Positions 4,233 to 25,543 of a stretch of DNA of 45,714 nt are shown here, in pieces. The DNA is taken from positions 1-45,714 of the forward strand of contig CAYIZJ010000001.1 of NCBI GenBank assembly GCA_964368045.1, given 5' to 3'. The notes below the pieces were generated by a model. It had not been told where the DNA came from. It ran no database searches and was given only the letters and a program-made list of their open reading frames with translations. The stretch is from an uncultured Muribaculaceae bacterium (GTDB lineage Bacteria > Pseudomonadota > Alphaproteobacteria > Rs-D84). The position numbers were made by a program, and so were the translations under genes. Within the stretch, counting starts at the first letter, position 1; every line of letters begins with the position of its first letter.

Positions 4233-6221
4233 ATGAAATATTTATCAAGCTTTTTTATTGCAGCATTATGCCTGACAGGATTTACTTCTGTGGGGGCCGA
4301 GCCTTTGTCCGGAACTGCCGGCAGTAATTTAACGTCTTATAATGGAACTATGGGTTCGATAAATAACAATCAATGGAATAATTTACAAAATGAACGCAAT
4401 GCAAATGCAAACTTTGGTAATTGTAATGCGGTGATTTTACGATGTGCTCAACCGAAATGTGCAACAGGTGGATGTACATCAATGGATATTGCATACCCAA
4501 TTGTTCAGGGTTGTGTTTTATCAAACAATGAATGCAAGGGCCACGGGGAAAGTTTAATTCAATCGATTGCCGCCCAACTGGTTGCGTCCAGCACGGCAAA
4601 GGCAAATCAAAATGCGGCAAACGCATCGGCTGCGGCCGCAAATGCAGCGGCAGCCAGCAGTGCCCAACAAATTCAAATGATGCAGCAACAAATTGAACAG
4701 ATGCAGTATCAATCCCAACAACAAAGTGCTTCTACGGCGGCCGCAGTCGAAGCCGCTTTGGCGGAACAAAAAATATTATCACAACAAACCGCACAACAAC
4801 AAATTGATATGGCGTCCGCTGCGGCGGCCGCAGCCGCACCGGCACAAAAAATTGAACAAGCGGTTAAAAACAATGTTTCCGCCGAAGTTCTTGTTCGTGA
4901 ACAGGCGGGTAACAGAATATTATCCCAATTGGAAAATTCCGAAGATGCTTTGAAAGTATTGAAAAAAACAATGCAAAACGTTTTTGATTATGCAAAATGC
5001 GATTCATCGGGTAATTATTGCGAAGGCCCTGCCCGTGTTGCGGTATTTAAATCCAAGGCAAACGATTTCTTTGACCCATATAACGACGTTTTGGACGAAG
5101 TTTATGACGCACTTATTTTGGCACAAAGTTTGGGTGTTGATATCACCGATATTTATATGATGTTAAATGACACATGTAATGTGTGGGGAACATTTTTATG
5201 CAGAGATGATACAAAAGATGGTGATGAACCTTGTGAATTATTGGAAATGATTACCGACAAACGTGAAGTCCAGGAAAAATGGATGGATAACAACACAAAC
5301 AAAGAAAGCAACATCGTAATAAAATGTGCATCCACTGCATTGGATGAATCAAAATTATTTAAAAACCGCAGAAAATCATCCAATATAGGAATTGATTTAT
5401 TGCGTCAAATTATCGAACAGGATTCCCCAACATACGGAACACCAGATGCGGCAGAATCTATGAAATATTGTTTTGATGCAAACCTTACCAAATCAACATT
5501 GGAAAAACAGGTTACTCAAAAAAGATACCCTGACAACATTTGTACTAACACACACTTTACTAGACTTAGCAATGACATAGATGATGACACAGGAATGTGT
5601 CCGGAATTTATAAACAGTGATTTTGCGTTATGCACAACACATGCATACAATTCTGGGTTGGATGAAAATTCCGACGATCAAAATGAAATGCAGGAAAACA
5701 AAGAAATCATCGCATTAAAAGCAACATTGATGACCCAGGAAATGAACAAACAGTTTAACTTTTTGGAAAGCACAATGGGCCGCTTTAAAACCCAATTGGA
5801 AAAAGCAATATTAACCGCCCAAATGGAAGCCGCCGGTGCCGCAGACGAAGAAAGCTCGGGCGGATATTCATCAACACTTACCGGTATTATGGAATGCGGC
5901 CGTCGTATATTGGTCGAAGATAAAACAGATTGTTTAATGAATAATTACGAAGCTGTTGGATATGCGACAAATTACGGCGAAAAAACCAGCACAGCTGCAA
6001 AAAAACAATTAGCAACCGATTATGAAACTGCATTTTCATTGGCTGATAGTTTAAAAATAGTCGACGAAAAAGCAGAAAACAAACAGTGCATATCTTCATC
6101 CGGTATGTCGACGACAAAAAAATTCCAAGAATGTTTAACAATATTTGGAACATTGCTGGGAACTATTAAAAATAATTTAACATCACAGGCAAACAAAAAT
6201 AATTCAAATGCCAGATATTAA
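4233..6221 (+). CDS. Large secreted Cys-rich protein with Ala/Gln-rich low-complexity coiled-coil segment
   Basis: 662 aa with a signal peptide (FFIAALCLTGFTSVGA). A Cys cluster NCNAVILRCAQPKCATGGCTS...GCVLSNNEC is followed by about 90 aa of A/Q-rich sequence (AAAANAAAASSAQQIQMMQQQIEQMQYQSQQQ...AAAAAAAP). More paired Cys occur along the rest of the protein. Confidence 0.7.
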   Translation: MKYLSSFFIAALCLTGFTSVGAEPLSGTAGSNLTSYNGTMGSINNNQWNNLQNERNANANFGNCNAVILRCAQPKCATGGCTSMDIAYPIVQGCVLSNNECKGHGESLIQSIAAQLVASSTAKANQNAANASAAAANAAAASSAQQIQMMQQQIEQMQYQSQQQSASTAAAVEAALAEQKILSQQTAQQQIDMASAAAAAAAPAQKIEQAVKNNVSAEVLVREQAGNRILSQLENSEDALKVLKKTMQNVFDYAKCDSSGNYCEGPARVAVFKSKANDFFDPYNDVLDEVYDALILAQSLGVDITDIYMMLNDTCNVWGTFLCRDDTKDGDEPCELLEMITDKREVQEKWMDNNTNKESNIVIKCASTALDESKLFKNRRKSSNIGIDLLRQIIEQDSPTYGTPDAAESMKYCFDANLTKSTLEKQVTQKRYPDNICTNTHFTRLSNDIDDDTGMCPEFINSDFALCTTHAYNSGLDENSDDQNEMQENKEIIALKATLMTQEMNKQFNFLESTMGRFKTQLEKAILTAQMEAAGAADEESSGGYSSTLTGIMECGRRILVEDKTDCLMNNYEAVGYATNYGEKTSTAAKKQLATDYETAFSLADSLKIVDEKAENKQCISSSGMSTTKKFQECLTIFGTLLGTIKNNLTSQANKNNSNARY

Positions 6222-7068: not shown

Positions 7069-7764
7069 TTATCTTGCCGGAGATATTCTAAGTTCAACCC
7101 TGCGATTAGTAATTCTTCCGAATTCATCCTGTGCGGCTATTGGGCGGGACGAACCACGACCAACAACAAACATACGCACCGGATTTATTCCATCCTGTGA
7201 CAGATATATGGCAACCCTTTGTGCCATATCCATTGATAATTTATTTGCAGCCGACGAATCAGACATCGAATCTGTGTAACCTGCGACTTCGATAAATGTT
7301 GCGGGATATTTTTTTAATATGTCAGAGATTTTTGACAAAGTATCAATTCCTGTTGCCGATAATTGCGGCGCATTTAATTCAATCAAAGAAGTGCGAACCA
7401 AAACAACAACAACGTCTGTTCCGGCACGTTGCACAGAAATACCCGATTTACGCAAAGAATCATAAAGCTGGGATTCTATATTTGCCATATAACTTACCGC
7501 TTTGACATTGTCGTTTAATGCTTTGTCGCCATAATCCAAATTTTCATCGAATTTTACCTGACTTAACAACATTCCGCCCGACCCCAAAAACACGGGTCTT
7601 TTTGCGACTTTTGCCTGATCGGTCATATCGGACAAGCTTACCCCCGCCAAATATTTCGGCCACATTTCCCGCTGCGGTGTTTGATATTGGGCACAAGAAG
7701 AAACACAACAACCCAACACAATCATTGAAAATATTTTATTAAATAATTTCATATTTTTTTTCAT
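7069..7764 (-). CDS. OmpA/MotB C-terminal-domain lipoprotein (peptidoglycan-associated)
   Basis: 231 aa with a lipobox (MIVLGCCVSSC). The C-terminal OmpA-like domain reads IEVAGYTDSMSDSSAANKLSMDMAQRVAIYLSQDGINP...GRITNRRVELRISP. Its start overlaps the stop of the upstream pilin gene by 1 nt. Confidence 0.85.
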   Translation of the reverse strand: MKKNMKLFNKIFSMIVLGCCVSSCAQYQTPQREMWPKYLAGVSLSDMTDQAKVAKRPVFLGSGGMLLSQVKFDENLDYGDKALNDNVKAVSYMANIESQLYDSLRKSGISVQRAGTDVVVVLVRTSLIELNAPQLSATGIDTLSKISDILKKYPATFIEVAGYTDSMSDSSAANKLSMDMAQRVAIYLSQDGINPVRMFVVGRGSSRPIAAQDEFGRITNRRVELRISPAR

Positions 7765-8225
7765 TATCTTTTGATTATAAATGAAACATCATTGTCGCCG
7801 GTTTCCATACATGTAATCCCCGGTTCGACTGTTAATCCGTTAACTTTTACAATATCTGCCCAATCCAATTTTTTCACGACAAAGTATTTACAATCGTCCC
7901 CAGATAAATTAACCAAATTGATTGAAAATTCCGTACCTTCGACGTTTGACGATATATCCCAATCCATTCCACCCAGTGGCGGTCGCACATCTTTTAACGC
8001 CCCTGCTTTGATAAGACCGTCAATAGAAATACCTTTGAAATCACCCTTGGAAGAATATAATATTTTTGCATTATTTGCTGTTGTTTTAAGACTTTCTTCG
8101 GCAACTGTCCGTGACGTTCTGTCACGCAAAGAATTATATGTCGCAATTACAGCCGTTGTTAAAACACCCATTATCGCCAAAACACCCAACATTTCTATTA
8201 AAGAGCGTCCGCTTTCTGATTTCAT
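7764..8225 (-). CDS. Type IV pilin / pseudopilin
   Basis: 153 aa. It has a short leader and class III signal, MKSESG|RSLIEMLGVLAIMGVLTTAVIATY, with Glu at +5 after the Gly. Two C-terminal Cys (DDCKYF ... GITCMETG) are compatible with a pilin D-region disulfide loop. Confidence 0.8.
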   Translation of the reverse strand: MKSESGRSLIEMLGVLAIMGVLTTAVIATYNSLRDRTSRTVAEESLKTTANNAKILYSSKGDFKGISIDGLIKAGALKDVRPPLGGMDWDISSNVEGTEFSINLVNLSGDDCKYFVVKKLDWADIVKVNGLTVEPGITCMETGDNDVSFIIKR

Positions 8226-8237
8226 ATTAAATCCTTT

Positions 8238-9803
8238 TTATATTTTTTCGATATCTGATGTGTCGGCACCGAACAAAGACATTGCATCAGCGATTGCTGG
8301 ATCGGTTTCTAATTCTTGGTTATTTACTTCTTTTAAAGTTTGAACATTTTCAGATTGTTCCAATTTATCCAAAGTCCATTTTTCACCGGTATAATCCAAC
8401 AGCCAATTCAATAATTTCAAACCGAAATCTTTATCGCCTTTTCTGTCGAAATATTTTATACAATTATTTTCAATCGATGAAATTTCAACATTTTCTTTGA
8501 AATAAGAATACAATATTATTTCTTTGGAATCTTTTAACCCATCCGACAAAGAGTTTGCATCAGTTATCGTTTTTTTTGCGACAACAGGTTGAACCGTTGG
8601 TTGTACAACAGGTTTAGATTCAGTTTGCGGAACAGCTGTTCGCACCATTGGTTTTGCTTCGTTTTGCAGTATTTCTGAAACAGATGGCATTTGTGCAATA
8701 TGAATCAATCGAATTGTTATCATATCAAAACATTGTTTTTGATTTTTTGCTGCATTCATTTCTGGGACAGCTGTGATTAAGACCTGCCAGATACGGGACA
8801 AAGAATTTAACGATGCGTCACGGATAGTGTCGATAATTTTTTTCTTTTGCTCTTCGGAATAAGGACAAGTTTTAACATCCGAACTTTTTAAAACCGGATG
8901 CATTCTGGTTGCCCAATGGGTCCATTCCAACATATCAGACATTAACATAGACAAATCTGTACCTGCATTATATACAGAATCAATCAATTCCAAACAACCC
9001 GAAACATTTCCGGATAAAACAAAATCCATCAAATTTAAAACGATGTTTCTATCGGCTCTTTTTAACATATCCATAACGGCTGCTTCATCAACTTTGCCGG
9101 CCGTTTGTGCGATTGCCTGATCCAACAAAGACAGACCATCACGAACAGAACCGTCCGCAGAACCCGCAATCAATTCGTTTGCCCCATCTGTTAATTCAAC
9201 GTTTTCAGATTTTGCAATTTTTGAAAAATGTTCTTTTAATGTTTCGACACTAACCCGTGCCAAATCAAATCTTTGACATCTGGATAAAATGGTTACAGGA
9301 ATTTTACGAACTTCGGTTGTCGCAAGTATGAATATTACATGGCTTGGTGGTTCTTCCAATGTTTTCAACAAAGCATTAAAAGCAGGTGTCGATAACATAT
9401 GAACTTCGTCGATTATATAAACTTTGTATCTGGCATTTGTTGGTTTATATTGAACACCACCCAAAATATCACGAATATTATCAACCCCGCTGTGTGATGC
9501 GGCGTCAATTTCCAAAACATCAATATGTTGTCCGGATGAAATAGATAAACAGTTTTCGCAAACACAACACGGATTTTGGGCCGGAACATTTTCGGACAAA
9601 CAATTCAAAGCCTTTGCAAAAATACGGGCTGTACTGGTTTTTCCTGTACCACGAATACCGGTTAAAACGTATCCATGTGCGATGCGTCCCGTACCGATTG
9701 CGGTTGTCAAAGTTTTGACCAATACATCTTGGCCGATTAAAGATTTAAAATCCTGACTGCGATATTTGCGGGCAAGAACTGTGTAATTAGAACTCATGTC
9801 CAC
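8238..9803 (-). CDS. dnaX: DNA polymerase III subunit gamma/tau
   Basis: 521 aa with Walker A GIRGTGKTSTARIFAKALNC, a Cys module NPCCVCENCLS, IIDEVHMLS and ILSRCQRFDL (SRC motif). A Pro/Gln/Val-rich linker precedes a short C-terminal domain. Confidence 0.95.
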   Translation of the reverse strand: MDMSSNYTVLARKYRSQDFKSLIGQDVLVKTLTTAIGTGRIAHGYVLTGIRGTGKTSTARIFAKALNCLSENVPAQNPCCVCENCLSISSGQHIDVLEIDAASHSGVDNIRDILGGVQYKPTNARYKVYIIDEVHMLSTPAFNALLKTLEEPPSHVIFILATTEVRKIPVTILSRCQRFDLARVSVETLKEHFSKIAKSENVELTDGANELIAGSADGSVRDGLSLLDQAIAQTAGKVDEAAVMDMLKRADRNIVLNLMDFVLSGNVSGCLELIDSVYNAGTDLSMLMSDMLEWTHWATRMHPVLKSSDVKTCPYSEEQKKKIIDTIRDASLNSLSRIWQVLITAVPEMNAAKNQKQCFDMITIRLIHIAQMPSVSEILQNEAKPMVRTAVPQTESKPVVQPTVQPVVAKKTITDANSLSDGLKDSKEIILYSYFKENVEISSIENNCIKYFDRKGDKDFGLKLLNWLLDYTGEKWTLDKLEQSENVQTLKEVNNQELETDPAIADAMSLFGADTSDIEKI

Positions 9804-9866: not shown

Positions 9867-10184
9867 TTATTTCAAATTTTGGATAAAATCTGGGAAATCA
9901 GATTCTTCTTCGTCTGCAATTTGCCCTGATGCTTCTTCGACAATATCAGCAGGTGCAGGACAAGCGGGTGCTGATTTATCTTTGACATCACGACCTGCGT
10001 CTATTTTGCCCTGTTCAGCAGACACTTGACGACCGAAATGTTCCGCCATTTGCAACAAGCGTTCACGTTCAACAACATCAGATGTTTGTCTTGCTTGATC
10101 CATATATTGTTTACGTCTTTGACGCCATTTATGACAACGTTGAATCATCATTCCAACACCAGATTGATTTTTTTTATTTTGCAT
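9867..10184 (-). CDS. DUF4167-like small basic protein (alphaproteobacterial family)
   Basis: 105 aa. KQYMDQARQTSDVVERERLLQMAEHFGRQ resembles the core I recall for DUF4167 (...KYLxLARDAxxxGDxVxAENYLQHAEHYFR). The N-terminus is basic and the C-terminus acidic. Confidence 0.5.
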   Translation of the reverse strand: MQNKKNQSGVGMMIQRCHKWRQRRKQYMDQARQTSDVVERERLLQMAEHFGRQVSAEQGKIDAGRDVKDKSAPACPAPADIVEEASGQIADEEESDFPDFIQNLK

Positions 10185-10328
10185 ATTTTCTTAACTTATT
10201 TTTATTTGGAAGTCAATTTTGGTAACACTAAATTTACCGTTCTATGACATATATGATAATTCATATGAAAACCGATTGCAATAATTTTTTTCAATTGCTA
10301 TGATAATAAACAAAAGAGAGGATAATTT

Positions 10329-11684
10329 TTGCAAAAGCAATCAGGAAATTTTTTATTGCAAGCCTTATTAGCATTAACACTGATTATTGGTTTTATGCCT
10401 TTGTTTACGAACAAAATTGCAACCCAAGAACAAGATGCGCGGATGAATACAGCGGTTAAACAGATTGAAATGGCATCAACTGCGGCAAAAATATATATCC
10501 AGGAAAATTTGAATGACATCAATTTTGAAACAACGACTATATCGGGGGATAAATTTACGGATTTATTGGAACCGTATGGATTGCCGCTGGGATTTATTCC
10601 AAAAACTTCGTACAACCAAGATTTGTCATTAGTTATTGTAAAAAGCGACACAGAAATTTATGCATATATTCAGGGAACCGGTGGCAATATGACCGAAAAC
10701 GAACTGGCACAACAGGCACGCCGAATTGGTTTTTACGGATCATACGAAGACAACATTATATACGCAATTGTCCCATTAAGTGAAGCTTTCCAAGATTTGG
10801 TTCCATTAAAAGAAAGAAATTTAACCAATTCTGGTTTTTTGGTCGATTTAAATATGGGTGATTTTGATATTGAAAACACTTCTATGCTATTGGGTCGAAA
10901 TGGGGAATTTGAAACAACCCAAATAAAAAATCTTTCATTATTAGGAATCGAAACTACGTTTGACGAACGAAACGAAATAAAAAATATGAATTCCAACATC
11001 GTTGTATTTCAATCCGATCAGGGTGATGCGGCTTTAACAATTAACACAGGTTTGTTGCAAACTGATTTTTTATCTGCTCGGACTTTTTCTGAATACGGTT
11101 CGGCTTCGAATTTATTGGCGGAAAATGTTGCAGTTTACGATTTCACCATGTCCGCCGGCAGCACCAGTTTTACAGGCCCCGCCGATTGGGAAGTGCGTGG
11201 AGACGTTATTGCGAACGACACGTCTTTTTCAACCGAAAGACTGGAAATAACATCTTTTATTGATGCGTCCGGCGGTCAGGATGTTTTCATCAGTCCAGAT
11301 TCTTTGGAATATTCTACCAATACAGGCATAACAACAGAATATATATACACAGCAAACATTACAATGCGTGACCAAACGTCCAGTGCGATATTACAAGGAC
11401 AAACAGGTGCGATTATATTAGACATCCGCCCTGCTGGAACATCTTTATTGCCTGATGCTTTGGTTTCCTGGATTAACAATGACGAAATTAAAATTTTAAA
11501 AGAACCGCTTGAACAAAGCTCGGATACAATTTCGTGCAAAGAACACATAACCACATTAGGCGGAACATATAATGCAAAATCTGTATCGCAATATATTATT
11601 TGCAGATATTTATTTTTACAAGCATTAGAAGAAAGAATAAATGCAAAAGAATGTTTATTACAAGGTGGGTCAAACTGTGTTTAA
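10329..11684 (+). CDS. Large prepilin-like protein, paralog 1 (Gln at +5, GspK-like head)
   Basis: 451 aa with a TTG start preceded by SD AGAGAGGA. The head is MQKQSG|NFLLQALLALTLIIGFMPLF. The central motif is DLNMGDFDIENT (nt 10848-10886), and the C-terminus holds four Cys. Confidence 0.65.
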   Translation: MQKQSGNFLLQALLALTLIIGFMPLFTNKIATQEQDARMNTAVKQIEMASTAAKIYIQENLNDINFETTTISGDKFTDLLEPYGLPLGFIPKTSYNQDLSLVIVKSDTEIYAYIQGTGGNMTENELAQQARRIGFYGSYEDNIIYAIVPLSEAFQDLVPLKERNLTNSGFLVDLNMGDFDIENTSMLLGRNGEFETTQIKNLSLLGIETTFDERNEIKNMNSNIVVFQSDQGDAALTINTGLLQTDFLSARTFSEYGSASNLLAENVAVYDFTMSAGSTSFTGPADWEVRGDVIANDTSFSTERLEITSFIDASGGQDVFISPDSLEYSTNTGITTEYIYTANITMRDQTSSAILQGQTGAIILDIRPAGTSLLPDALVSWINNDEIKILKEPLEQSSDTISCKEHITTLGGTYNAKSVSQYIICRYLFLQALEERINAKECLLQGGSNCV

Positions 11685-12894
11685 AAAGAAGTTAAAAATT
11701 TTTAATGCAACCCGATACGAACTGCAAAATCAACAACGTGGTGCCAGTTTATTGGAAATCATGTTAGTGTTTTCTATTGTTGCAGCGTTAAGTCCTTTTT
11801 TCTATTCCCAAATTGCGGACATTTCCAAAAGTATGCAAGACGTTGCAACCGCAAAAAAAGTTATAACCATTCGTGAAAATGCTTTGAATTTCGTGCGATT
11901 AAATCAGGATAAATGGCCCGATATCGCACAAATAATTTTGTCCGATGCAGAATTGGATTCCATCAGCCCTATGCCGGAACTTGGTTTAATCGATAAATAT
12001 CCCGTACAAGATTCTTATGTAACTGATATATATTTGATATTTTCATTTCCCGACGGGGCAACACGCAGTGCACAAATCGCACAAAAAATTGGACCGGACG
12101 CAACAATTGTTTCAAATGATGGTGTTGCATATACCGCCAGCTGGGCGATAAGTTCACCTGATTTTTTACCTGGGGATTTGGTATACAAAATAAACTATGA
12201 TTTTAATACACAAAACATTGAAAAATATTTACATAAAACAGCATCCGAAAACGAAGAATTGAATATAATGGCCCGACCATTAAATATGAATAATTTTGAT
12301 TTACAAAATGTTGGCAACCTCACGGCAACTTCGTCTTCGTTTGACGAAGTCACAGCAGCATTTTTACAAGCCACAGATTTATATGCATCAAACATATATT
12401 TTTCCAAAGGTGCAAATATCGAAAGTGATGAAATAAATATAAAAAGCATACGTGTGAACAAAGATATAACCGGATTCAATGAAGTCGCAACAAAAACTTT
12501 GAACAAACAAGGATTTTCAACCGACGGCGGTATTATTGCAAATCGTGCCAATATTTACAATTCTGTAAACGTTGGAAATAATTTAAATTTAAATCCATCG
12601 GGCAGTTTAAGTGTATCCGGCTTTGCGGGAATTATGGCACATTATGTTGAAACAGCTTATTTGGCAACGGACGAATTGATTTTCCATAATAATTTTGGAA
12701 TCACATTGTCCAGCGAACTTTTGATGTCAACAGAAACACCTTTGAAAATCGGCAATTGGTCTTTTCCGTCCAGCACACCGCCATCATTCACCGATTTCGG
12801 ATTGGGTCGAACCGTTATTCCACAATCTATTGAAACAACAGAATTTGAAAAAATAATGGATTCTGCATGGCAGGATATCCCACAAAAACAATAA
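11677..12894 (+). CDS. Large prepilin-like protein, paralog 2
   Basis: The ORF is open from ATG 11641. GTG 11677 is preferred because it has SD AAGGTGG 7 nt upstream and forms an 8-nt GTGTTTAA overlap with the upstream stop. The head is ...QNQQRG|ASLLEIMLVFSIVAALSPFF (Glu +5). The central motif is PLNMNNFDLQNV (nt 12280 onward), and a beta-rich N/S/G repetitive C-terminal half follows. Confidence 0.65.
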   Translation: MFKKKLKIFNATRYELQNQQRGASLLEIMLVFSIVAALSPFFYSQIADISKSMQDVATAKKVITIRENALNFVRLNQDKWPDIAQIILSDAELDSISPMPELGLIDKYPVQDSYVTDIYLIFSFPDGATRSAQIAQKIGPDATIVSNDGVAYTASWAISSPDFLPGDLVYKINYDFNTQNIEKYLHKTASENEELNIMARPLNMNNFDLQNVGNLTATSSSFDEVTAAFLQATDLYASNIYFSKGANIESDEINIKSIRVNKDITGFNEVATKTLNKQGFSTDGGIIANRANIYNSVNVGNNLNLNPSGSLSVSGFAGIMAHYVETAYLATDELIFHNNFGITLSSELLMSTETPLKIGNWSFPSSTPPSFTDFGLGRTVIPQSIETTEFEKIMDSAWQDIPQKQ

Positions 12895-12907
12895 AGATAA
12901 AAAAGAA

Positions 12908-14224
12908 ATGAAATTATTTAAAAGAGCTTTTTTTGAAAATCAACGTGGTGCAACAATGGTTGAATTTTTGTTGACACTTGGGCTGGCGGCGGCAATGATT
13001 CCATTTTTACTGGGGTTTCAAACCGATCGTATTCGTCGTGCCGAAAACATTGCAATAACTCGTGAAATGCAATTATTTCAAAACGCACTGGAAAAATACA
13101 TAACGACAAATAAAAGCGATTTGGAAAAAACTATTGGAAAAAGCATTACACGTGTTGATATTGTTTCTTTATCCGATTACGGCATCAGCGAACAGACTTT
13201 GAATAAATACAAAGACAAAATTCAACTTCGGATTTTAAAATCAGACAACGATAAAAATCAAATCGTTTTACAGGGTGTTATCGTTTTAAATGATGCAGAC
13301 ATTACATCTTTTCGCACGAACGAAATTGTAAATTTGGGTGATTCAAATATCGGATACATCCAAGAAAACCAAGCATACGGTGTTGGTGGCACTTGGCAAA
13401 CAAATACCAAAAACCTTGACTTAATAAAAACAGATGGTTTGGTAAAAATAACAAAACCGAAAATCAGCCAAGACAATTATTTATGGCGTTTACCATCGGA
13501 CAACAATTCAGATGCAACGATGTTAAATTCTTTGAACATGGCAAACCGTGACATTACGAATGTAAAATTCTTTGATGGTAAATATGGAAAATTTGGCGAA
13601 TATATCAAAACCCAAGAAATTCAATCCGACACAGTTGTATTTGAAACTCGTAGTAATTTAGGTGGCCAACTTAATTCAGCCAGTGCGACAATTTCAGGAA
13701 CACTATCTTCGGATTCGACCAACATGTATGTTTCCGACACGATAAGTTTGACGGGTGTCGGAAAATTTGATTCGATTGAATCCAATGATTTATGGGTGAA
13801 CGATTTAAATTTATCCGGATTATACGTATCGGATGAATTCAGCGAAGAACCTGCGATTTTAAAAATCCTACGCAAACTGGAATTAACAGAAGGCACAATA
13901 TATGCAAATTACACAACAGTTGGATTTGACGGATCAATTACACCACGATTGATAATAGGCAGCCGTATCGAAGACGCTTCGAATCCTGAATACTTTTGGG
14001 ATGCCGATTTAAAATCTGCGAAGTTTTCCGACGTTACTTTTGCGGAATTAAATCGATTATCAACAGAGTTAAACCGATTGCATCGCAGCAAATTAACAGT
14101 TTCTACGAAAATATTTCAAATCCCAGCGAATAACCAAAACGCAACAATTACAGATTTTATCAATGCTTTGAATGAAATCGAAGCCCTGATAAAAATAAAA
14201 TATCAGCAGTTGAATTTAGAATAA
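12908..14224 (+). CDS. Large prepilin-like protein, paralog 3 (TadE-like head)
   Basis: 438 aa. The head is MKLFKRAFFENQRG|ATMVEFLLTLGLAAAMIPFLLG (Glu +5, xVEF as in TadE-type heads). The central motif is YLWRLPSDNNSDATMLNSLNMANRDITNV (nt 13532 onward). Confidence 0.65.
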   Translation: MKLFKRAFFENQRGATMVEFLLTLGLAAAMIPFLLGFQTDRIRRAENIAITREMQLFQNALEKYITTNKSDLEKTIGKSITRVDIVSLSDYGISEQTLNKYKDKIQLRILKSDNDKNQIVLQGVIVLNDADITSFRTNEIVNLGDSNIGYIQENQAYGVGGTWQTNTKNLDLIKTDGLVKITKPKISQDNYLWRLPSDNNSDATMLNSLNMANRDITNVKFFDGKYGKFGEYIKTQEIQSDTVVFETRSNLGGQLNSASATISGTLSSDSTNMYVSDTISLTGVGKFDSIESNDLWVNDLNLSGLYVSDEFSEEPAILKILRKLELTEGTIYANYTTVGFDGSITPRLIIGSRIEDASNPEYFWDADLKSAKFSDVTFAELNRLSTELNRLHRSKLTVSTKIFQIPANNQNATITDFINALNEIEALIKIKYQQLNLE

Positions 14225-14243
14225 TATATGGTATATATAAGAT

Positions 14244-14747
14244 ATGAAAAAAACTTGTAACGTTTGCAAAACTAATTTTTATACGGATAAATCATTATCT
14301 GGGGCCGTTCGTTGTCCGATGTGCGGAATGATGATACACAATAAAAAGCCAGCGAATAAAAAATCATTACTTACTTTGTTTGCATCAATTTGTGCATTGT
14401 TGGCAGTATCTGTGTTTTCTTATTATTCTATAAAAACCCATCGCATTGACAATATGACTAAAAACCCACTGATTGCCGAAGTATTAAAAACAAACGTCAT
14501 AACAGTCGAAGGTGAAAAACAAATCGAAGTTTATGGACGCATAAAAAACATCAGTGAATATGTATACGGTGTACCAAATGTATTTGTAATATCCAAAGAC
14601 AAAGATGATAATATTTTAAGCATTCAAAAATTTATGCCACCTGCAACATTACTGGGTTCGGATGAATATGTTGATTTTAAATATTTGTTATCCGGTTCGA
14701 TTTATGACACCGCAAAAATAACCGTTCAATTAAAGGATGTTAAATGA
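14244..14747 (+). CDS. MJ0042-type zinc-ribbon membrane protein with DUF3426-like C-terminal domain
   Basis: 167 aa. It begins with CxxC...CxxC (CNVCKTNFYTDKSLSGAVRCPMCG), then one TM (LLTLFASICALLAVSVFSYY). The C-terminal beta domain carries IEVYGRIKNISEYVYGVPNVFVISKDKDDNIL. Confidence 0.6.
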   Translation: MKKTCNVCKTNFYTDKSLSGAVRCPMCGMMIHNKKPANKKSLLTLFASICALLAVSVFSYYSIKTHRIDNMTKNPLIAEVLKTNVITVEGEKQIEVYGRIKNISEYVYGVPNVFVISKDKDDNILSIQKFMPPATLLGSDEYVDFKYLLSGSIYDTAKITVQLKDVK

Positions 14748-15208
14748 TTAAAAAGCTTATTTTATTCGTATTTTTAATATCAAATTTCGGGATAGCGGCA
14801 GCAGCGGATTCGGATGCACCGTCACGTGTTACTGTTTTTTCAACCAGTTCCGACTGGCAGGCGATAACAGGATTGCGATTAAACCAACATCGTGTTGAAA
14901 TCATACCCGACAAAACAATCATAGATCAGGGTTTGGAATTATATTACTTGGACGGATTTCCATGTTACGGCGAAGGCGGCCGAACTTTTTATTGGCAGGG
15001 ACCTTGGGGTGAACATAGTGATTGGGATATAATGGTTGTGTGTATTTATCCGCCAACTGAACTTCTTTTTGCATGGCATCATGCAAAACAAGATGCATTC
15101 CAAGAAACAACCACAGGATTGTTAAAATGCCCAGTTGAAGGCGAACACACATTGACCGTCAATATGTCAAAATGCACATTTGAAAAAGACTGGAAGGAAT
15201 ATAAATAA
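14744..15208 (+). CDS. Secreted protein, function unknown
   Basis: 154 aa with a signal peptide (LILFVFLISNFGIAAAADS), four Cys and a Trp-rich core (FYWQGPWGEHSDWD). It has an ATGA overlap with the upstream gene and a TAATG overlap with the downstream gene. Confidence 0.55.
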   Translation: MIKKLILFVFLISNFGIAAAADSDAPSRVTVFSTSSDWQAITGLRLNQHRVEIIPDKTIIDQGLELYYLDGFPCYGEGGRTFYWQGPWGEHSDWDIMVVCIYPPTELLFAWHHAKQDAFQETTTGLLKCPVEGEHTLTVNMSKCTFEKDWKEYK

Positions 15209-16179
15209 TGTCAGAAAATCGTAACTTTACAATATATGAATCAGATGCAGGTCAAAGATTGGATAAATTTTTGGCGACTATGATGCCGGAATATTCCAGA
15301 AACGAAATCCAACGGTTCGAAGTAACCAAAACAATTGATGGAATATCAATGCCGGCAAAGTTTTCGGAAAAAATTAAAACAGGTACGGAATATGCGGTAT
15401 TGGTCCAAGGCTTGGAAAAACCAGACACCGATTTAAAACCTGAAAACAATTTTGATTTGACAATATTGTTCGAAGACGAAGATATAATTGTTGTTAACAA
15501 GCCTCGTGGTGTTGTTATGTATCCAGCCGCCGGTAATGCAACGGGGACATTGGTTCAAAATATTTTATCACACACACATTTATCCGCATTGGGCGGCAAC
15601 GTTCGCCCTGGGGTTGTTCATCGTTTGGACAAAGACACCAGTGGGGTTGTTGTTTTGGCAAAATCTGATGCGGCTTTCAAAGAATTAACAAAAACTTTTG
15701 CGGACCACACCCTGACCCGTAAATATATTGCAATCTGTTGGGGCGTTCCAACATGGGAAAGTGCCGATATCACTGGTAACATTGCACGATCTTCTCGTAA
15801 TCGCCAAAAAATGTCAATGGTTAAAACCGGTGGCAAACATGCCGAAACCGAGGTCGAAGTCGTTAACATATGGGGACGGGAAAAAATTTGTGAACTTCGT
15901 TGTGCTTTGAAAACAGGTCGCACCCATCAAATCAGGGTTCATTTATCCACACACGGATTTCCTGTTTTATGTGACCCTATTTATGGCCGTGGTTCAACCC
16001 GTCTGGGCAGTGTTAAAAATATGGATTTATTGGACTTTTTATCCGAAAATAATGGTCAAATGCTGCATGCAAAAATATTGGAATTTGATCACCCTGTAAC
16101 GGGCGAAAAAATGAAATTTAACACAAAATTACCATCCGACATGCAAGAATTGAAATATATTTTAGAATCCGATCGTTAA
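15208..16179 (+). CDS. rluD: RluA-family 23S rRNA pseudouridine synthase (RluD-like)
   Basis: 323 aa with an S4-like N-terminus (GQRLDKFLATMMPEYSRNEIQR). It carries the catalytic motif HRLDKDTSGVVVLAKS and GRTHQIRVHL. Confidence 0.85.
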   Translation: MSENRNFTIYESDAGQRLDKFLATMMPEYSRNEIQRFEVTKTIDGISMPAKFSEKIKTGTEYAVLVQGLEKPDTDLKPENNFDLTILFEDEDIIVVNKPRGVVMYPAAGNATGTLVQNILSHTHLSALGGNVRPGVVHRLDKDTSGVVVLAKSDAAFKELTKTFADHTLTRKYIAICWGVPTWESADITGNIARSSRNRQKMSMVKTGGKHAETEVEVVNIWGREKICELRCALKTGRTHQIRVHLSTHGFPVLCDPIYGRGSTRLGSVKNMDLLDFLSENNGQMLHAKILEFDHPVTGEKMKFNTKLPSDMQELKYILESDR

Positions 16180-16264: not shown

Positions 16265-19228
16265 ATGAAAATTCTGAACAAAACAATTGGAATTATCGCA
16301 ACTATGGCTGTTTTGCCTGCTGCGGTTGCTGTAACATACAGAACAACGGGAACGACATATTCATCCCGTATGCCGACTATGACGGGTGTGATAAATTCGA
16401 CAACATCTGCGTCAACATCGACCAGTTCGTCCACAACCACCAGCGTTGACGAAGTCAACAGACTGTGCGTTGATAATTATGTGGGCTGTTTAAAGGGTGC
16501 GGATGTCTGCGGAACAAGTTTCCAAGAATGCACCAACAATACATTGCTTTTCGCAAAACAAGGTATGTGTGCAAGTACTTTATCGGCTTGTTCATCTGCT
16601 GCGATACAAACATTGTACGGAATTGGTTCAACGACTTCGTTTGCTAACAAAGACAGCAACGGCGAATACGTTTATCCTGCGGACACCAGTGTTTTGGGAC
16701 AAATGGTCGAAGCCGCATTTTTAAACAACCGTTATGACACATCAACCTGTGTTCGCAGATATGAAACATGTTTAACACGTGGGGATGTTTGTGGTTCGGA
16801 CTTTGAATTATGTACAACAGATACAGAATTTAAAAAACAAAAATTATTCTGCGAATCGACGCTGGGCCGTTGCCAAGAAGACGGTGTACTTGAATTATTC
16901 GGCACAACAACCCCGTCTGCAAGTCCATCCAGCACCAGTCGTTTGGGTATAAAAATCACCGAAGGTGCCGCATTGGCTGCGATTAACGCAGTTTCGACTT
17001 GTTACAAAGTTGCCGATCAATGTATTTTAAATACTTGTGCAACAAATCCGTACAAGTGTAAAGCTGGTTCCGATATGGCAATCGCTGATGCTGCGGACGT
17101 TATCAATAACGAAGACGCAACATCGAACAATGAAATATCTTTTGAAAGTGTTACCAGTTCACAGGTTCGTGGATTTATAGAAAACAATTGCTTTGACACA
17201 ATCGGTGCGAACAAATATTGTTATGCGACATTTTTGGGTGGTGGTGCAATGCCGTCAAATTCCCAATTACAGGACCAAGACAACAGATATGATGTCTTTG
17301 CCGAAGCATACGCATCCCGTATGAACAATTCAATGGAATCAAAAATCGATGATTTGATTATAAGCTTTGATAAAAAAACAAAAGAACGCTGTGCATCAAC
17401 AATTACCAATTGTGCAATGGGCGCATGTGGTGACGGTGTTGGTTCGGCTTGTTATTCTGCGGCTTTTGCCGAAGGTAACACAGTCAAAGGTGTAACCAGC
17501 GATACAACGCTAAGCGATATTAAATTCAGCTGTGAATCGATTGTAAACAACGATGATTACTGTAAATACGCAGGTGCAACATTTGATAATGCAACGGGTA
17601 CTTTAAGCTTCCTGGGGGATGGTTTATTTGATTTCTTGTTCACATCGATGGACGACGATGTCACAACACCGGATCCAATTGGTGTGGTTGGTGAATTGAA
17701 TGCAAAGTTAAGCAGTTCATACAATGCGGCCGCATTAAACAGAATGGAAGATCAATGTGAAATATTTGCAACACAATGTGTTATATCCGAATGTGGCGAT
17801 GGTTTTGAAAATTGCTACCGCAACAGAAACGATATCTATTCAACCCTGACTGCAACGACCAGTGATTCATTTAACAAAAGTATGAACAAAGTCGGTGGTG
17901 TATTGGATTACACAGTTATTATTGGGCTATGTTTGAATCAGGTAAAAAACAATTCGGTCTGTAATGAACATTTACGTGCCGAAGCCGCCCGTTCCGAAGT
18001 CGGCAAAAATACAAGCAATGTTTGGGGTTCCGATACAACAATCCGCAACAGCTGGTTGGGTGCAGGTGCCTATGACGTTTCCGAAGACCTAAGAGAAGCA
18101 ATACAACAACAGGATGAAAACGGTCAGGATTTGTGTAAAACACAAAGCGGTGTAATCTGTGTATGCGGCACGACCAGTGGTGGTCAGGCATGCGACACAC
18201 CGTATACAATTTCTGAATACGATTACACAATCAACGCGGCTGGAACCAATTTATTCAGTCAAATCATATTCGATTTGGAAAAAGAAGCCCAGGCCGAATA
18301 TAACGCAAAATTAACAAAACAACAAAATATGTGTTTATCCGGAAATACTGGTATCACAGGTTTCAAAGTCGGCGGAACATTTATGTGGGCAAAATTGAAA
18401 AACAATAAAATCCCATCTGATTATCCGGTAAACGGTTTGGAAGACAAAGATTTTGTTTCCAGCAATGAAATACACAACAGTTTTTGCCGTATTCGTGTGA
18501 CATTGCAATCCGAAGACAAAGCGATACAGGATTTGTTGAAAAAAGATGATAAATCAACAGCATACTTTGCGGCCGGTGATTCATTTACCTGCGGAAGCTG
18601 GTTAACACAAGGCGACTTGGATGATATTACAAAGGTTATTTCCGAAGACGTTATGGATGACCGTGAAGCGGGTGATAAAAGAACCAAAACATGGGCCACA
18701 ATTGGCGGTGTTGCGGCAGGCTTGTTGGGTGGTGGATTTGGTGGAAACGCTATTGAAACCAAATTCGGCGGATTATGGGGCGATCCAAAAGCCGTATATG
18801 ACAGCCGTGAAGAATCATCTGCTGCTTTAACCACAGCAAAAAGACAGCTGAGCAATCTGGAAGAAGAATTAGCTGATTTAGAAGAAAGAAACACAGATAA
18901 CTCTCTTGCTAATGATATCGCTGACTTAGAAGAAGAAATCGCTGAAAAAGAAGATGATATCGATAGATTAGAAGAAGATCTAAGAACAGCCGAAGATACA
19001 AAAACCAAACAATGGGCCGGTACAACAATCGGTGCGGGCGTTGGTGGTGCGGTTGGTGGTGTTCTGGGATGGGGCATTGCAAAAAGTGCAACAACTGCCG
19101 CAACCGAGGCCGCCGTTGACGAAGCTGTTATGGAATGGTTGGACAGCATGAGCAGCACAGTTAAATGTTACATAGGTCCTGACGAGGTTGGTTCATACGG
19201 CGACGTTATATCAACCGAAATGGAATAA
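16265..19228 (+). CDS. Giant secreted/surface Cys-rich repeat protein with C-terminal double glycine zipper and acidic coiled coil
   Basis: 987 aa with a signal peptide (IIATMAVLPAAVAVT) and an S/T-rich linker (TSASTSTSSSTTTS). Two clear ~52-aa Cys-module repeats lie at nt 16466-16621 and 16748-16903, with further CxnC clusters downstream. The C-terminus reads GGVAAGLLGGGFGG ... LEEELADLEE...IADLEEEIAEKEDDIDRLEEDL ... GAGVGGAVGGVLGWG. Confidence 0.75.
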   Translation: MKILNKTIGIIATMAVLPAAVAVTYRTTGTTYSSRMPTMTGVINSTTSASTSTSSSTTTSVDEVNRLCVDNYVGCLKGADVCGTSFQECTNNTLLFAKQGMCASTLSACSSAAIQTLYGIGSTTSFANKDSNGEYVYPADTSVLGQMVEAAFLNNRYDTSTCVRRYETCLTRGDVCGSDFELCTTDTEFKKQKLFCESTLGRCQEDGVLELFGTTTPSASPSSTSRLGIKITEGAALAAINAVSTCYKVADQCILNTCATNPYKCKAGSDMAIADAADVINNEDATSNNEISFESVTSSQVRGFIENNCFDTIGANKYCYATFLGGGAMPSNSQLQDQDNRYDVFAEAYASRMNNSMESKIDDLIISFDKKTKERCASTITNCAMGACGDGVGSACYSAAFAEGNTVKGVTSDTTLSDIKFSCESIVNNDDYCKYAGATFDNATGTLSFLGDGLFDFLFTSMDDDVTTPDPIGVVGELNAKLSSSYNAAALNRMEDQCEIFATQCVISECGDGFENCYRNRNDIYSTLTATTSDSFNKSMNKVGGVLDYTVIIGLCLNQVKNNSVCNEHLRAEAARSEVGKNTSNVWGSDTTIRNSWLGAGAYDVSEDLREAIQQQDENGQDLCKTQSGVICVCGTTSGGQACDTPYTISEYDYTINAAGTNLFSQIIFDLEKEAQAEYNAKLTKQQNMCLSGNTGITGFKVGGTFMWAKLKNNKIPSDYPVNGLEDKDFVSSNEIHNSFCRIRVTLQSEDKAIQDLLKKDDKSTAYFAAGDSFTCGSWLTQGDLDDITKVISEDVMDDREAGDKRTKTWATIGGVAAGLLGGGFGGNAIETKFGGLWGDPKAVYDSREESSAALTTAKRQLSNLEEELADLEERNTDNSLANDIADLEEEIAEKEDDIDRLEEDLRTAEDTKTKQWAGTTIGAGVGGAVGGVLGWGIAKSATTAATEAAVDEAVMEWLDSMSSTVKCYIGPDEVGSYGDVISTEME

Positions 19229-24265: not shown

Positions 24266-25543
24266 ATGAACGTAATACATAAATTATTATCCATATCGTC
24301 TTTTTTTATCTTGGGTGCGTGTTCTGCTGGAATGGAAAGCCGTTTGGAAAATGCTCGTTCAAACTATCTTCAAAACAGTCCAATTACCGTTGCAAAATCT
24401 TTTGATGGTGTAACCGATGATTATGGAAACTTGGATAATTTGGAATTATTGATTGCAGGGGACGCCCTATTTCGTGCAAATGAATTTGAAAAAAGCGATG
24501 ATATTTTCGAAGAATTCAATCGCCGCCAATTAAATTTAACCGACTTTGATATGGGTCGTGAGGCCACAATTTTACTGGGTGGAAATATGTCGGCCAGTTA
24601 CAGACCTTTTATGATGGATTCTTTGTTTGCGTCATATTATCAATTGTGGGATGTTTTGGCATTAAATGAAATGGATAACGCACAGGTTGTTATAAATCAA
24701 GCATACGAAAAACAAAAAAAAATGGGCGGCGAATACGAAGAGTTAATTAACCAAACAAATGAAAACATCAAAAACAACCAAGATGAATTTAATGCTTTGT
24801 TCAGTGACAGAAAATCCACATGGAAGGTATATTCCGAAATAATGAATCCGGCACTAACATATTTATCGGGGCTTTATTTTTTAAACGTTGGTGATTTTAC
24901 CGATGCTAAAACATTTCTGGAACGGGCGGGCGGTATGATGCCAAACAATTCATACATTGACCAAGATTTATCGGATGCCAAATCTAAACGAACACCAAAC
25001 GGGATTGCATGGATATTCATTGAAAACAGCTTTGCCCCGAAATTAACAGAACAAAGAACCGAAATCCCATGGATAATTGACGGCAATTTAACATTTATTA
25101 CAATGGCAACGTCCCAGCCGATGTATTTTAATACCGACCCTGTTGTTAAAAATTCAAAATTACTGGCGGACGTTGATGCAATGTTTATGACCGAATATCA
25201 ACATTATCGTGAAAACGAAGAATTACGAATGTTTGCGTCGGCAGTTTCAAAAACTATTTTACAATCGACGATGTATAATTCGGGCTCTGACGCTTCACCA
25301 TTGATGGGATTGATGGCGACCGCTTATTCTATGGCGACTACATCGGCCGAAGTTCGCACCTTTGCCACATTACCAAAAAGCATATGGTTATATCGGGTTA
25401 AAAAGCCAAATAATGGCGAAATCGAATTAAAAACAGGTTCTGGCACATTAACAACAATCAATATACCTGTGGACGGAAATCATATCATTTATGTTCGACC
25501 GAATAAACTTGCGGTTGATACAAAAATCATTAGAATAAAATAA
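24266..25543 (+). CDS. Lipoprotein, COG3014-like (uncharacterised conserved family)
   Basis: 425 aa with a lipobox (FFILGAC). A TPR-like N-terminal part is followed by YRPFMMDSLFASYYQLWDVLALNEMDNAQVVINQAYEKQ and, near the C-terminus, AEVRTFATLPKSIWLYRV. It starts 1 nt after the coupling-protein stop. Confidence 0.55.
   Translation: MNVIHKLLSISSFFILGACSAGMESRLENARSNYLQNSPITVAKSFDGVTDDYGNLDNLELLIAGDALFRANEFEKSDDIFEEFNRRQLNLTDFDMGREATILLGGNMSASYRPFMMDSLFASYYQLWDVLALNEMDNAQVVINQAYEKQKKMGGEYEELINQTNENIKNNQDEFNALFSDRKSTWKVYSEIMNPALTYLSGLYFLNVGDFTDAKTFLERAGGMMPNNSYIDQDLSDAKSKRTPNGIAWIFIENSFAPKLTEQRTEIPWIIDGNLTFITMATSQPMYFNTDPVVKNSKLLADVDAMFMTEYQHYRENEELRMFASAVSKTILQSTMYNSGSDASPLMGLMATAYSMATTSAEVRTFATLPKSIWLYRVKKPNNGEIELKTGSGTLTTINIPVDGNHIIYVRPNKLAVDTKIIRIK

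Follow-up and report, generated by a model that had tools for sequence, protein, structure and literature searches.

Three consecutive genes for predicted PilV-class large minor pilins in a reduced Rs-D84 alphaproteobacterial genome

Background

PilV is the tip adhesin of the thin (type IVb) conjugative pili of IncI1, IncI2 and IncK plasmids and of PAPI-1-type islands, and is described by the Pfam family PF04917. Multi-gene minor-pilin sets form another kind of tip, and their distal members (GspK, PilX/PilK) lack the glutamate at position +5 (Glu5). As a minor pilin and adhesin, PilV selects target cells (PMC9045228). CofB and TcpB are trimeric initiators at the pilus tip, and the minor-pilin trimers of such type IVb systems have a secreted binding partner (PMC6048534, PMC9565799). 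We describe here three adjacent genes, A, B and C, from a gut alphaproteobacterium of the order Rs-D84 (Candidatus Enterousia and its relatives), the genomes of which are smaller than 1 Mb, and compare their predicted products with these systems.

Results

Organization of the locus

All five open reading frames (ORFs; genes A to E) and the following rluD were found in the 45.7-kb window (the whole stretch of DNA analyzed, 45,714 nucleotides) where the original prediction had placed them. The junctions were confirmed as well: an 8-nt overlap of A and B, gaps of 13 nt between B and C and of 19 nt between C and D, an ATGA overlap of D and E, and a TAATG overlap of E and rluD. Gene A (10329 to 11684, plus strand, 451 aa) starts at TTG 10329, preceded by the Shine-Dalgarno sequence AGAGAGGA. 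The A/B overlap requires GTG 11677 as the start of gene B (11677 to 12894, plus strand); this codon has the Shine-Dalgarno sequence AAGGTGGG and gives a protein of 405 aa, in agreement with ortholog lengths of 394 to 407 aa (the longest ORF starts at ATG 11641 and has 417 aa). Gene C (12908 to 14224, plus strand) encodes 438 aa. Between A and a small conserved gene on the minus strand (9867 to 10184) lies a divergent intergenic region (10185 to 10328), presumed to be the promoter region of the A-to-rluD string, with promoter-like sites at 10233-10260 and 10276-10304 that are consensus matches only; the plus strand from A through rluD (10329-16179) is without a terminator.

We fetched 84 related loci (L001-L084) and counted gene order only in those that were long enough; the order sm105<>A-B-C-D-E-rluD is kept in every locus extending that far. 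A relative of C was found in 245 species genomes. The context is chromosomal, among housekeeping genes (dnaX, rluD, lpxD, infB and nusA).

Conserved class III signals

The products of A, B and C are predicted to be PilV-like large minor pilins with class III signals, which read MQKQSG/NFLLQ in A, ...QQRG/ASLLE (Glu at +5) in B and ...NQRG/ATMVE (Glu at +5) in C. That these proteins are pilin-like had been proposed from the window alone, and the orthologs bear it out: Gly(-1) is kept in 35 to 44 diverged orthologs of each protein, with G34 (-1) and E39 (+5) invariant in B (35 sequences), G14 (-1) and E19 (+5) invariant in C (44 sequences), and G6 (-1) nearly invariant in A (43 sequences, from a family of 910 homologs at about 50% identity). 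The suggested likeness of A to GspK-type tip pseudopilins, based on Gln at +5, also held, Q11 (+5) being invariant in the same 43 sequences. Conservation of the A-B-C signals is well beyond chance.

Family models were matched less often. N_methyl (PF07963) scored 12.9 bits on B, under its gathering score of 21.2, and was likewise sub-threshold in 27 of 35 B orthologs; A and C did not match it, and A had no Pfam or NCBIfam match at all, including T2SSK and related minor-pilin families. Two suggestions of the original prediction found no support: a likeness to TadE (PF07811; none of A, B and C matched at E<=1) and a link to phage tail fibers (no phage match for the window proteins). In AF2 models of A and C, an N-terminal helix of about 50 residues packs on an alpha-beta domain (helix 8-59 and domain to about residue 150 in A, at pLDDT 85-93; helix 13-67 and domain to residue 181 in C). 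These models have low confidence in their middle and C-terminal regions, and the beta-helix or fiber that had been suggested for the C-terminal halves was not confirmed there. Foldseek searches returned no structural match, pilins included.

Paralogy and relationship to PilV

BLASTP finds little pairwise similarity among A, B and C (E 2e-4 to 0.04, about 20% identity); profile-profile comparison with hhalign gives E-values of 7.9e-19 for B-C, 6.4e-10 for A-C and 2.2e-9 for A-B. On these profiles the relationship is clear: A, B and C are true and anciently diverged paralogs. They have in common the N-terminal approximately 250 aa, including the predicted segment behind the helix (AAxxY(I/V)xxN in the three consensus lines), and differ in their C-terminal halves. 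The LNM motif (aa 173-184 in A, 213-224 in B and 208-219 in C) falls in conserved columns of all three ortholog families, as had been anticipated. Its A version (DLNMGDFDIENT; 10845 to 10880, plus strand) matches the PilV constant-region pattern PDLNxMHTAIxMGGNNINxVG, and the plus-strand motif blocks of B (YLHKTASEN...PLNMNNFDLQNV; 12226 to 12312, with the LNM motif at 12277-12312) and C (YLWRLPSDN...SLNMANRDITNV; 13478 to 13564, with the LNM motif at 13529-13564) align with the PilV block in the profile alignments. Between A and B the motif is even detectable as a DNA repeat (D1; 29 nt, 79% identity).

A resemblance to the constant region of R64 thin-pilus PilV, suggested in the original prediction, proved correct. 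Against an alignment of nine PilV proteins, hhalign matched B (98.3%, E=1.2e-14), C (97.4%, E=1.3e-11) and A (E=4.8e-10), in alignments that run from the helix through the globular domain and take in the LNM motif. After deletion of the helix, the matches of B (95.9%, E=5.4e-9) and C (92.7%, 4.2e-7) persist, and A gives 1e-4; the negative control, the family of the 153-aa pilin described below, matched PilV at 2e-4 on the helix and not at all once the helix was trimmed. A tblastn search with B matched an annotated PilV across residues 31-296. The Pfam model Shufflon_N (PF04917) does not match A, B or C of the window, and among orthologs it was found in one of 44 for C (3.7e-5), two of 35 for B (0.11 or worse) and none of 43 for A. 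These comparisons show A, B and C to belong, as distant and previously unannotated members, to the PilV/Shufflon_N class of large type IVb minor pilins, and the LNM motif is the signature of the PilV/Shufflon_N constant region. The proposal of a wholly new pilin-anchored fiber is not sustained, given that the proteins fall in the PilV superfamily and that a triad related to theirs is part of a canonical type IVb cluster (below).

Separate conservation of the three paralogs

PilV variants on IncI plasmids act as alternative adhesins (PMC9045228), and three paralogs with a common N-terminal part and differing C-terminal halves could be viewed in the same way, as interchangeable tip adhesins of which one per pilus is used, giving three receptor specificities and a hard-wired substitute for a shufflon. 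This idea, also put forward in the original prediction, seems to us improbable. The paralogs are ancient and each is retained in every related genome; their order does not vary among the loci that extend far enough; each is uniformly conserved along its full length, the C-terminal halves as much as the N-terminal halves and with no hypervariable C-terminus; and A is systematically without Glu5, B and C with it. No shufflon was found in the window, where there are only weak AT-rich inverted repeats and no recombinase ORF.

The pattern of a first member without Glu5, which likewise speaks against interchangeable adhesins, recurs in comparable triads of other uncultured lineages, where the first member has Gln (L096 and L098) or Leu (L100) at +5. 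It is usual rather than universal, because all three giant paralogs in L094, and apparently the A ortholog in L099, keep Glu5. Giant relatives of 740-1618 aa occur in other lineages. In L100 (GCA_964552285.1) the triad (604, 538 and 477 aa) lies directly after TcpQ, Secretin, PAP_PilO, T2SSE, T2SSF and PilS genes, which make up a complete R64-type type IVb pilus cluster.

A candidate filament subunit and the pilus machinery

The window holds one further pilin gene (7764 to 8225, minus strand; 153 aa), with the short leader MKSESG/RSLIE, in a conserved dnaX-pilin-ompA-ompH unit. Its product scores 18.9 bits with N_methyl and has weak N-terminal matches to GspH and GspG; the ESG/RSLIE signal is kept in the orthologs examined, and 75 of the 84 loci have the gene. 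Outside the helix the protein is unrelated to PilV, A, B and C; it is a candidate for the major subunit of a filament.

PilB, PilC, PilD and secretin families were not found among the ORFs of the window, as the original prediction had stated, and a search of 1.66 Mb of related loci for sequence motifs of PilB/GspE and prepilin peptidase gave nothing. The one comparative survey of Rs-D84 reports type IV pili in a different lineage but none in Rs-D84 itself (PMC12306168). One could suppose from this that there is no filament, the machinery having been lost in genome reduction, and that A, B and C are envelope or periplasmic proteins anchored in the inner membrane, with a new role that is perhaps linked to VirD4. 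In the window, 7.8 kb downstream, there is an orphan VirD4-type coupling protein gene, alone nearby in a context that includes no conjugative plasmid or ICE; VirD4 is immediately convergent with the triad in L096 and L097 and adjoins the pilin unit in L003 and L004. We nevertheless give this supposition a low probability, because we know of no role for Gly(-1) and Glu(+5) besides peptidase cleavage and filament assembly, yet the signals are strictly retained in the three families, with Gln at +5 in A, and in the 153-aa pilin. The homologous triad within the complete type IVb cluster of L100 argues against it as well.

Genes D, E and rluD

Downstream of the triad, gene D (14244 to 14747, plus strand) encodes 167 aa with a predicted cytoplasmic MJ0042-type zinc ribbon, one transmembrane helix and a periplasmic DUF3426-like domain; the earlier description of D as a zinc-ribbon/TM/DUF3426-like protein agrees with its orthologs, 13 of 14 of which match Zn_ribbon_4 and eight of 14 DUF3426. 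Gene E (14744 to 15208, plus strand; 154 aa), present in all 84 loci, has a Sec signal and four invariant Cys and matches no known family. The string ends with a housekeeping rluD-type pseudouridine synthase gene (15208 to 16179, plus strand), on the orthologs of which PseudoU_synth_2 is found.

A Sec-dependent, Cys-rich protein in the same gene string recalls TcpF and CofJ, which are carried by TcpB and CofB trimers (PMC6048534, PMC9565799). The triad might by this precedent cap a short pseudopilus, a T2SS-like or TCP-like filament working as a piston for the export of a periplasmic protein, which might be E; weak N-terminal matches to GspG and GspH are seen for B and the 153-aa pilin, and some B and C orthologs carry the JGI label PulG. 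Such a secretion role is in our estimate quite unlikely, since T2SS genes are nowhere in view, the matches to GspG and GspH are confined to the generic helix, and D and E do not travel with the triad: they stand with rluD apart from it in L098 (D-E-rluD), D-rluD does so in L099, and both are absent near the triads of L096 and L100. By gene order D-E-rluD or D-rluD is a separate unit in other lineages, and the partnership of D and E with the triad that had been proposed is not supported; co-transcription of D with the triad is predicted, but a functional link is doubtful for D and at most putative for E.

Discussion

On balance we think it probable that A, B and C form a nonredundant, heterotrimeric tip or initiation complex of type IVb style, on a filament of the 153-aa pilin and with C-terminal halves that bind another cell. 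A prepilin peptidase, its gene lying in another part of the genome, would cleave each of the three proteins behind the conserved Gly, and a type IV filament machine would then pull them out of the inner membrane. We favor a heterotrimer with one copy of each because the three are separately conserved over their whole length, keep a fixed and packed A-B-C order, and have a first member without Glu5; within it, the product of A, by analogy with Glu5-less distal subunits, is the candidate for the distal cap. The filament below would probably be built from the pilin encoded at 7764-8225, and the A-B-C complex would correspond, with three genes in place of one, to the homotrimeric CofB/TcpB initiator of type IVb pili. 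If PilV is a guide, the C-terminal halves may bind a surface structure of another cell, presumably a partner or host on which this metabolically dependent bacterium relies.

A bolder version, which we regard as rather unlikely although worth stating, makes the triad the heterotrimeric tip of a minimal type IVb-derived organelle for latching onto and exploiting other cells, with machinery that is highly divergent or replaced, possibly involving VirD4/T4SS; the relatives of 740-1618 aa would then be longer-reaching forms of this device. If that were true, partner-dependent Rs-D84 bacteria would exploit other cells through a PilV-like tip.

Comparison with known systems

Among described proteins A, B and C most resemble PilV, in size (380-460 aa) and class III signal, in the long N-terminal helix followed by an AARxYxxDN segment, and in the globular domain and, near residue 200, the motif (R)LYR...P(D/E)LNxM...(L/I)xMGGNxIxNxG. 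They differ from it in falling below the Pfam threshold, in being three fixed paralogs rather than one gene with invertible 3' cassettes, in having neither an rci recombinase nor sfx repeats nor adjoining pilL-pilU genes, in missing the C-terminal LSCQSGxW region of PilV, and in lying on the chromosome of a reduced genome among housekeeping neighbors rather than on a conjugative element.

CofB, TcpB and LngB (of CFA/III, TCP and Longus) belong to one class of large (approximately 420-520 aa) minor pilins, which start assembly, form a trimer at the tip and carry a docked secreted protein from the same operon (PMC6048534, PMC9565799, PMC5207764). That trimer is a homotrimer from one gene, whereas three genes are present here; no H-type lectin domain like theirs was detected in A, B or C, and neither profile searches of PDB sequences, which gave only geopilin helices, nor Foldseek found similarity to CofB or TcpB. 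Relative to GspI-GspJ-GspK and the type IVa tip complexes, A, B and C are three to four times larger, are mutual paralogs and have no sequence match; the multi-gene arrangement, and the lack of Glu5 in A and in the first members of L096, L098 and L100, are features shared with GspI-GspJ-GspK, PilV/W/X-FimU and PilH-I-J-K.

The triad of L100 adjoins type IVb machinery that is absent around A-B-C (in the window and in L001-L084), belongs to a genome of 52% GC that encodes flagella, and has a first member without detectable similarity to A. It nevertheless has the same arrangement, with three genes in a row for large class III proteins and no Glu5 in the first of these; its second member carries Pfam Shufflon_N and is scored at 46 bits by the B HMM, and its third member carries LNRMYTDLNMGFNSIAG.

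Organization of the locus

The three adjacent plus-strand genes for large pilin-like proteins, here A, B and C (together the triad), are found at 10329-11684 (A, 451 amino acids [aa], with a TTG start behind AGAGAGGA), from GTG 11677 or ATG 11641 to 12894 (B), and at 12908-14224 (C, 438 aa). GTG 11677 is the more likely start of B because it is preceded by AAGGTGGG and yields a protein of 405 aa, which fits the lengths of its orthologs (394-407 aa); with this start, the 8-nucleotide overlap of A and B originally predicted holds. A tightly packed string continues on the same strand with D (14244-14747; a zinc ribbon, one transmembrane helix and a DUF3426 domain), E (14744-15208; a Sec-dependent protein with four invariant Cys and of no known family) and, as its last gene, rluD (15208-16179); no terminator-like sites were found on the plus strand across 10329-16179. 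Divergent from A is the small conserved gene sm105 (minus strand, 9867-10184), whose highly charged 105-aa product has no match in Pfam; it is the best-conserved neighbor (median identity 64%, 80 of the 84 related loci, invariably adjoining A).

Upstream of A on the minus strand is a dnaX-pilin-ompA-ompH unit (7069-9803). Its 153-aa pilin gene (minus strand, 7764-8225; signal MKSESG/RSLIE) is squeezed in between dnaX and the gene of an OmpA-family lipoprotein, a stop and a start sharing base 7764, and ompH follows. The unit is kept in about 75 of the 84 loci and has moved as a block in L020. The order sm105-A-B-C-D-E-rluD, with sm105 divergent, is intact wherever the locus reaches that far (84 loci), even where the pilin unit is displaced (L007, L020).

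Large secreted Cys-rich proteins of no family, all encoded on the plus strand, flank the cluster: at 1776-2585 (269 aa), at 4233-6221 (662 aa, homologs in 33 of 84 loci) and at 16265-19228 (987 aa, homologs in 67 of 84 loci; C-terminal coiled coil and Gly-zipper membrane segment). Two tandem paralogous lipoproteins without a Pfam family (plus strand, 42528-43529 and 43544-44557; 333 and 337 aa) contain GGNTGG linkers rich in Gly and Thr and share the same C-terminus, HQYDDGSKQVDTEIFFGGQAE. The other genes of the window are housekeeping genes (lpxD, fabZ, der, an rpoH-like sigma factor, infB, nusA, lptF/G, lptD and rlmN).

Pilus machinery is, as originally stated, absent from view: no PilB, PilC, PilD or secretin gene was found within the 45.7-kb window, and regular expressions for PilB/GspE motifs (GEIRD, His box, Walker A) and for the prepilin-peptidase motif GGGDVK had no match in six-frame open reading frames of 85 loci. 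The window does carry an orphan gene for a VirD4/TraG-type type IV coupling protein (plus strand, 22063-24264), around which no VirB genes were seen in the window, followed by genes for a lipoprotein without an assigned family (24266-25543) and an LpoB-family protein (25564-26316); in loci L003/L004 a VirD4 homolog adjoins the ompA-pilin-dnaX unit. A, B and C might on these grounds be membrane-anchored proteins left after machinery loss, possibly linked to VirD4 and a type IV secretion system, a reading that we consider improbable given the triads described below, one of which is physically part of a pilus system.

Conservation and paralogy

We judged the class III signature on alignments of 35-44 orthologs per gene (40-55% identity). 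Neither Gly(-1) nor Glu(+5) varies in B (G34 and E39) or in C (G14 and E19); in A, Gln is invariant at +5 and Gly(-1) is nearly invariant. This conservation is beyond chance and upholds the class III-type signals first proposed. Pairwise BLASTP among A, B and C gave weak matches, and profile-profile comparison was decisive for their paralogy (B-C, E = 7.9e-19 over 246 columns; A-C, 6.4e-10; A-B, 2.2e-9), in agreement with the three paralogous genes of the original prediction. All three alignments extend through the LNM motif (LNMxxxD(I/L)xN(V/T) core; aa 173-184 in A, 213-224 in B and 208-219 in C), the region of which is also a 29-nucleotide DNA repeat between A and B.

Conservation is even along the whole length of all three proteins, with no variable C-terminus. 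Three paralogs sharing one motif could be interchangeable adhesins, which seems unlikely to us; the three fixed-order paralogs are shown to be non-redundant. A shufflon was rejected because no sfx-like repeats were found.

Relationship to PilV

Scanned directly against Pfam and NCBIfam, A, B and C matched no family, and PDB sequence-profile searches gave nothing for the protein bodies and only weak geopilin-helix matches, for C. In the AlphaFold2 models of A and C, a helix of some 50 residues packs against an alpha-beta head (pLDDT 85-93 to about residue 150 in A, moderate for the helix and head of C, low in the middles of both); searched with Foldseek against the PDB, these only partly confident models matched nothing at E ≤ 0.001.

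The relationship became visible in a tblastn search of B against plasmids, in which the best-covered match (residues 31-296) is annotated 'shufflon system plasmid conjugative transfer pilus tip adhesin PilV'. We aligned nine proteins annotated as PilV or PilV-like, from IncI2, IncI-gamma/K1, IncK2/Z and other enterobacterial plasmids and from Pseudomonas megaplasmids. Their consensus, NDRLYRxxVxGxPDLNxMHTAIxMGGNNINxVG, is plainly the motif of the B (KYLHRGTSGEDxLNVMxRDLNMGxxxxYNVG), C (YLWRVPSxNxSDATMLSxLNLGGHDIxNA) and A (GFLTDLDMGGFxxxNxG) families. Profile-profile comparison with PilV gave E = 1.2e-14 for B (probability 98.3%), 1.3e-11 for C (97.4%) and 4.8e-10 for A (96.6%). When both partners of the comparison were trimmed of the N-terminal helix, the matches of B (5.4e-9) and C (4.2e-7) remained clear and that of A (1e-4) was marginal, and the 153-aa pilin family of the same genomes, our negative control, had a helix-only match to PilV (2e-4) and, when trimmed, none. 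The Pfam Shufflon_N model, which describes the PilV constant region, matched one of 44 C orthologs at 3.7e-5 and, with E no better than 0.11, two of 35 B orthologs; none of the A orthologs was matched. To judge from these comparisons, A, B and C form a remote, unannotated branch of the PilV/Shufflon_N superfamily, and they are very probably PilV-like minor pilins.

The observation behind the original prediction is therefore confirmed and its interpretation partly supported. The suggested likeness to PilV proved right, given the shared motif, the profile-profile scores, the helix-trimmed matches and the negative control; the TadE-like, GspK-type and phage tail-fiber likenesses were rejected, with no Pfam match and, for C, no phage match. 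Resemblance to phage long tail fibers is limited to PilV's own region after the motif (about aa 226-387; seen with L086 and further plasmid PilV genes and phage records H56-H65). In addition, some 70% of the length of PilV is matched by two 'Bacteriophage sp.' contigs from human feces that lack annotation.

Triads in other genomes

A full HMMER search of 1.84 billion representatives with the B profile retrieved 345 proteins at E ≤ 1e-3 (64 at E ≤ 1e-30), including, beyond the orthologs, relatives of 420-490 aa and a large group of longer proteins (740-1618 aa) with class III signals, which score higher with the PilV HMM than with that of B or C. These giants (P0388-P0438; signal ...QKGS/MMVEALAMLGL...) resemble PilV over an N-terminal stretch of about 240 aa. 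They belong to a large, unannotated branch of the Shufflon_N superfamily, which escapes the present models of Pfam and NCBIfam.

Triads recur in other uncultured lineages. Giants stand in tandem in L094/L095 (1236-1083-1188 aa; L094 3551-14143; PilV HMM 77-96 bits). The first member has Gln at +5 in L096/L097 (412-433-490 aa; immediately convergent with a VirD4-type gene) and in L098 (444-461-487 aa), and a weak precomputed Shufflon_N match in L099 (498-476-426 aa) and L101 (487-423-544 aa). A first member without Glu5 is not universal: Glu5 is kept in all three giants of L094 and apparently in the A ortholog of L099. The PilV-like large-pilin triad, its first member usually lacking Glu5, is therefore a recurrent module.

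In L100 (GCA_964552285.1, CAZKGT010000009.1, 1-14030; 52% GC) the gene order is TcpQ, Secretin, PAP_PilO, a 185-aa gene, T2SSE, T2SSF and PilS, with the triad following directly (604-538-477 aa). Its first member has Leu at +5, the second has Pfam Shufflon_N and the third carries LNRMYTDLNMGFNSIAG. This is a complete type IVb pilus cluster of the R64 type, with three large genes rather than one pilV at PilV's place. In at least this one case, the triad physically belongs to a type IVb pilus system. This pilus cluster adjoins flagellar genes.

The same loci bear on D and E, proposed as partners of the triad. The string A-B-C-D-E-rluD is kept in Rs-D84, but D (L099) or both D and E (L098) adjoin rluD away from the triad, and neither is present near the L096 and L100 triads, so that co-transcription in Rs-D84 need not mean shared function; the functional tie is weakened. 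That E is a secreted partner like CofJ or TcpF is speculation.

Host lineage

Every homolog of A, B and C is an unnamed 'hypothetical protein', and all come from uncultured Alphaproteobacteria of the gut and of termites. When one genome was scanned for each species, 245 genomes proved to contain a C relative; many of them bear the label Candidatus Enterousia or are given as 'Rickettsiales' metagenome-assembled genomes, and they are of the GTDB order Rs-D84. These widespread gut bacteria (Candidatus Enterousia and relatives) have genomes below 1 Mb, no respiration and almost no biosynthesis, and have been proposed to depend on other cells as obligate symbionts or parasites; the paper concerned describes type IV pili in another lineage and does not mention pili in Rs-D84 (PMC12306168). 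Nothing specific on pili of Rs-D84 or Enterousia came up in our literature search. The alphaproteobacterial locus also occurs in OZ246409.1 (L023/L001; a 716,531-bp chromosome), titled 'uncultured Muribaculaceae bacterium', and in CAVGNU010000002.1 (L068), titled 'Bacteroides fragilis'; both records are probably mislabelled or contaminated bins.

Since the 3.9-kb triad has been kept in 245 species genomes while most biosynthesis was shed, it is a concrete, testable candidate for an attachment or cell-contact organelle of these uncultured, partner-dependent bacteria.

A model for the triad and comparison with known pili

On sequence evidence, A, B and C are very probably type IVb minor pilins of the PilV kind, triplicated, chromosomally encoded and without a shufflon, in gut Alphaproteobacteria of reduced genome. 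We somewhat favor a model in which these PilV-like pilins, once cut behind Gly, join 1:1:1 in a heterotrimeric complex that would initiate the filament or form its tip, with A as the cap; the filament would probably be built from the 153-aa pilin, and the tip complex would mediate adhesion to a partner cell. The distal tip subunit of type II secretion (T2SS) and type IVa systems lacks Glu5, as A does. Counting against the model are the lack of machinery genes in the window and the first members that keep Glu5, in L094 and apparently in L099. The triad could instead belong to a secretion pseudopilus, to which we give a small chance, if slightly more than to the other alternatives.

PilV is both a minor pilin and an adhesin that chooses the target cells in conjugation (PMC9045228), and in the CFA/III and TCP pili a single large minor pilin (CofB, TcpB) is the trimeric tip initiator (PMC6048534, PMC9565799, PMC5207764). 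To this homotrimeric tip encoded by a single gene, the triad suggests a heterotrimeric counterpart encoded by three, whose first member has no Glu5 in the majority of the triads examined.
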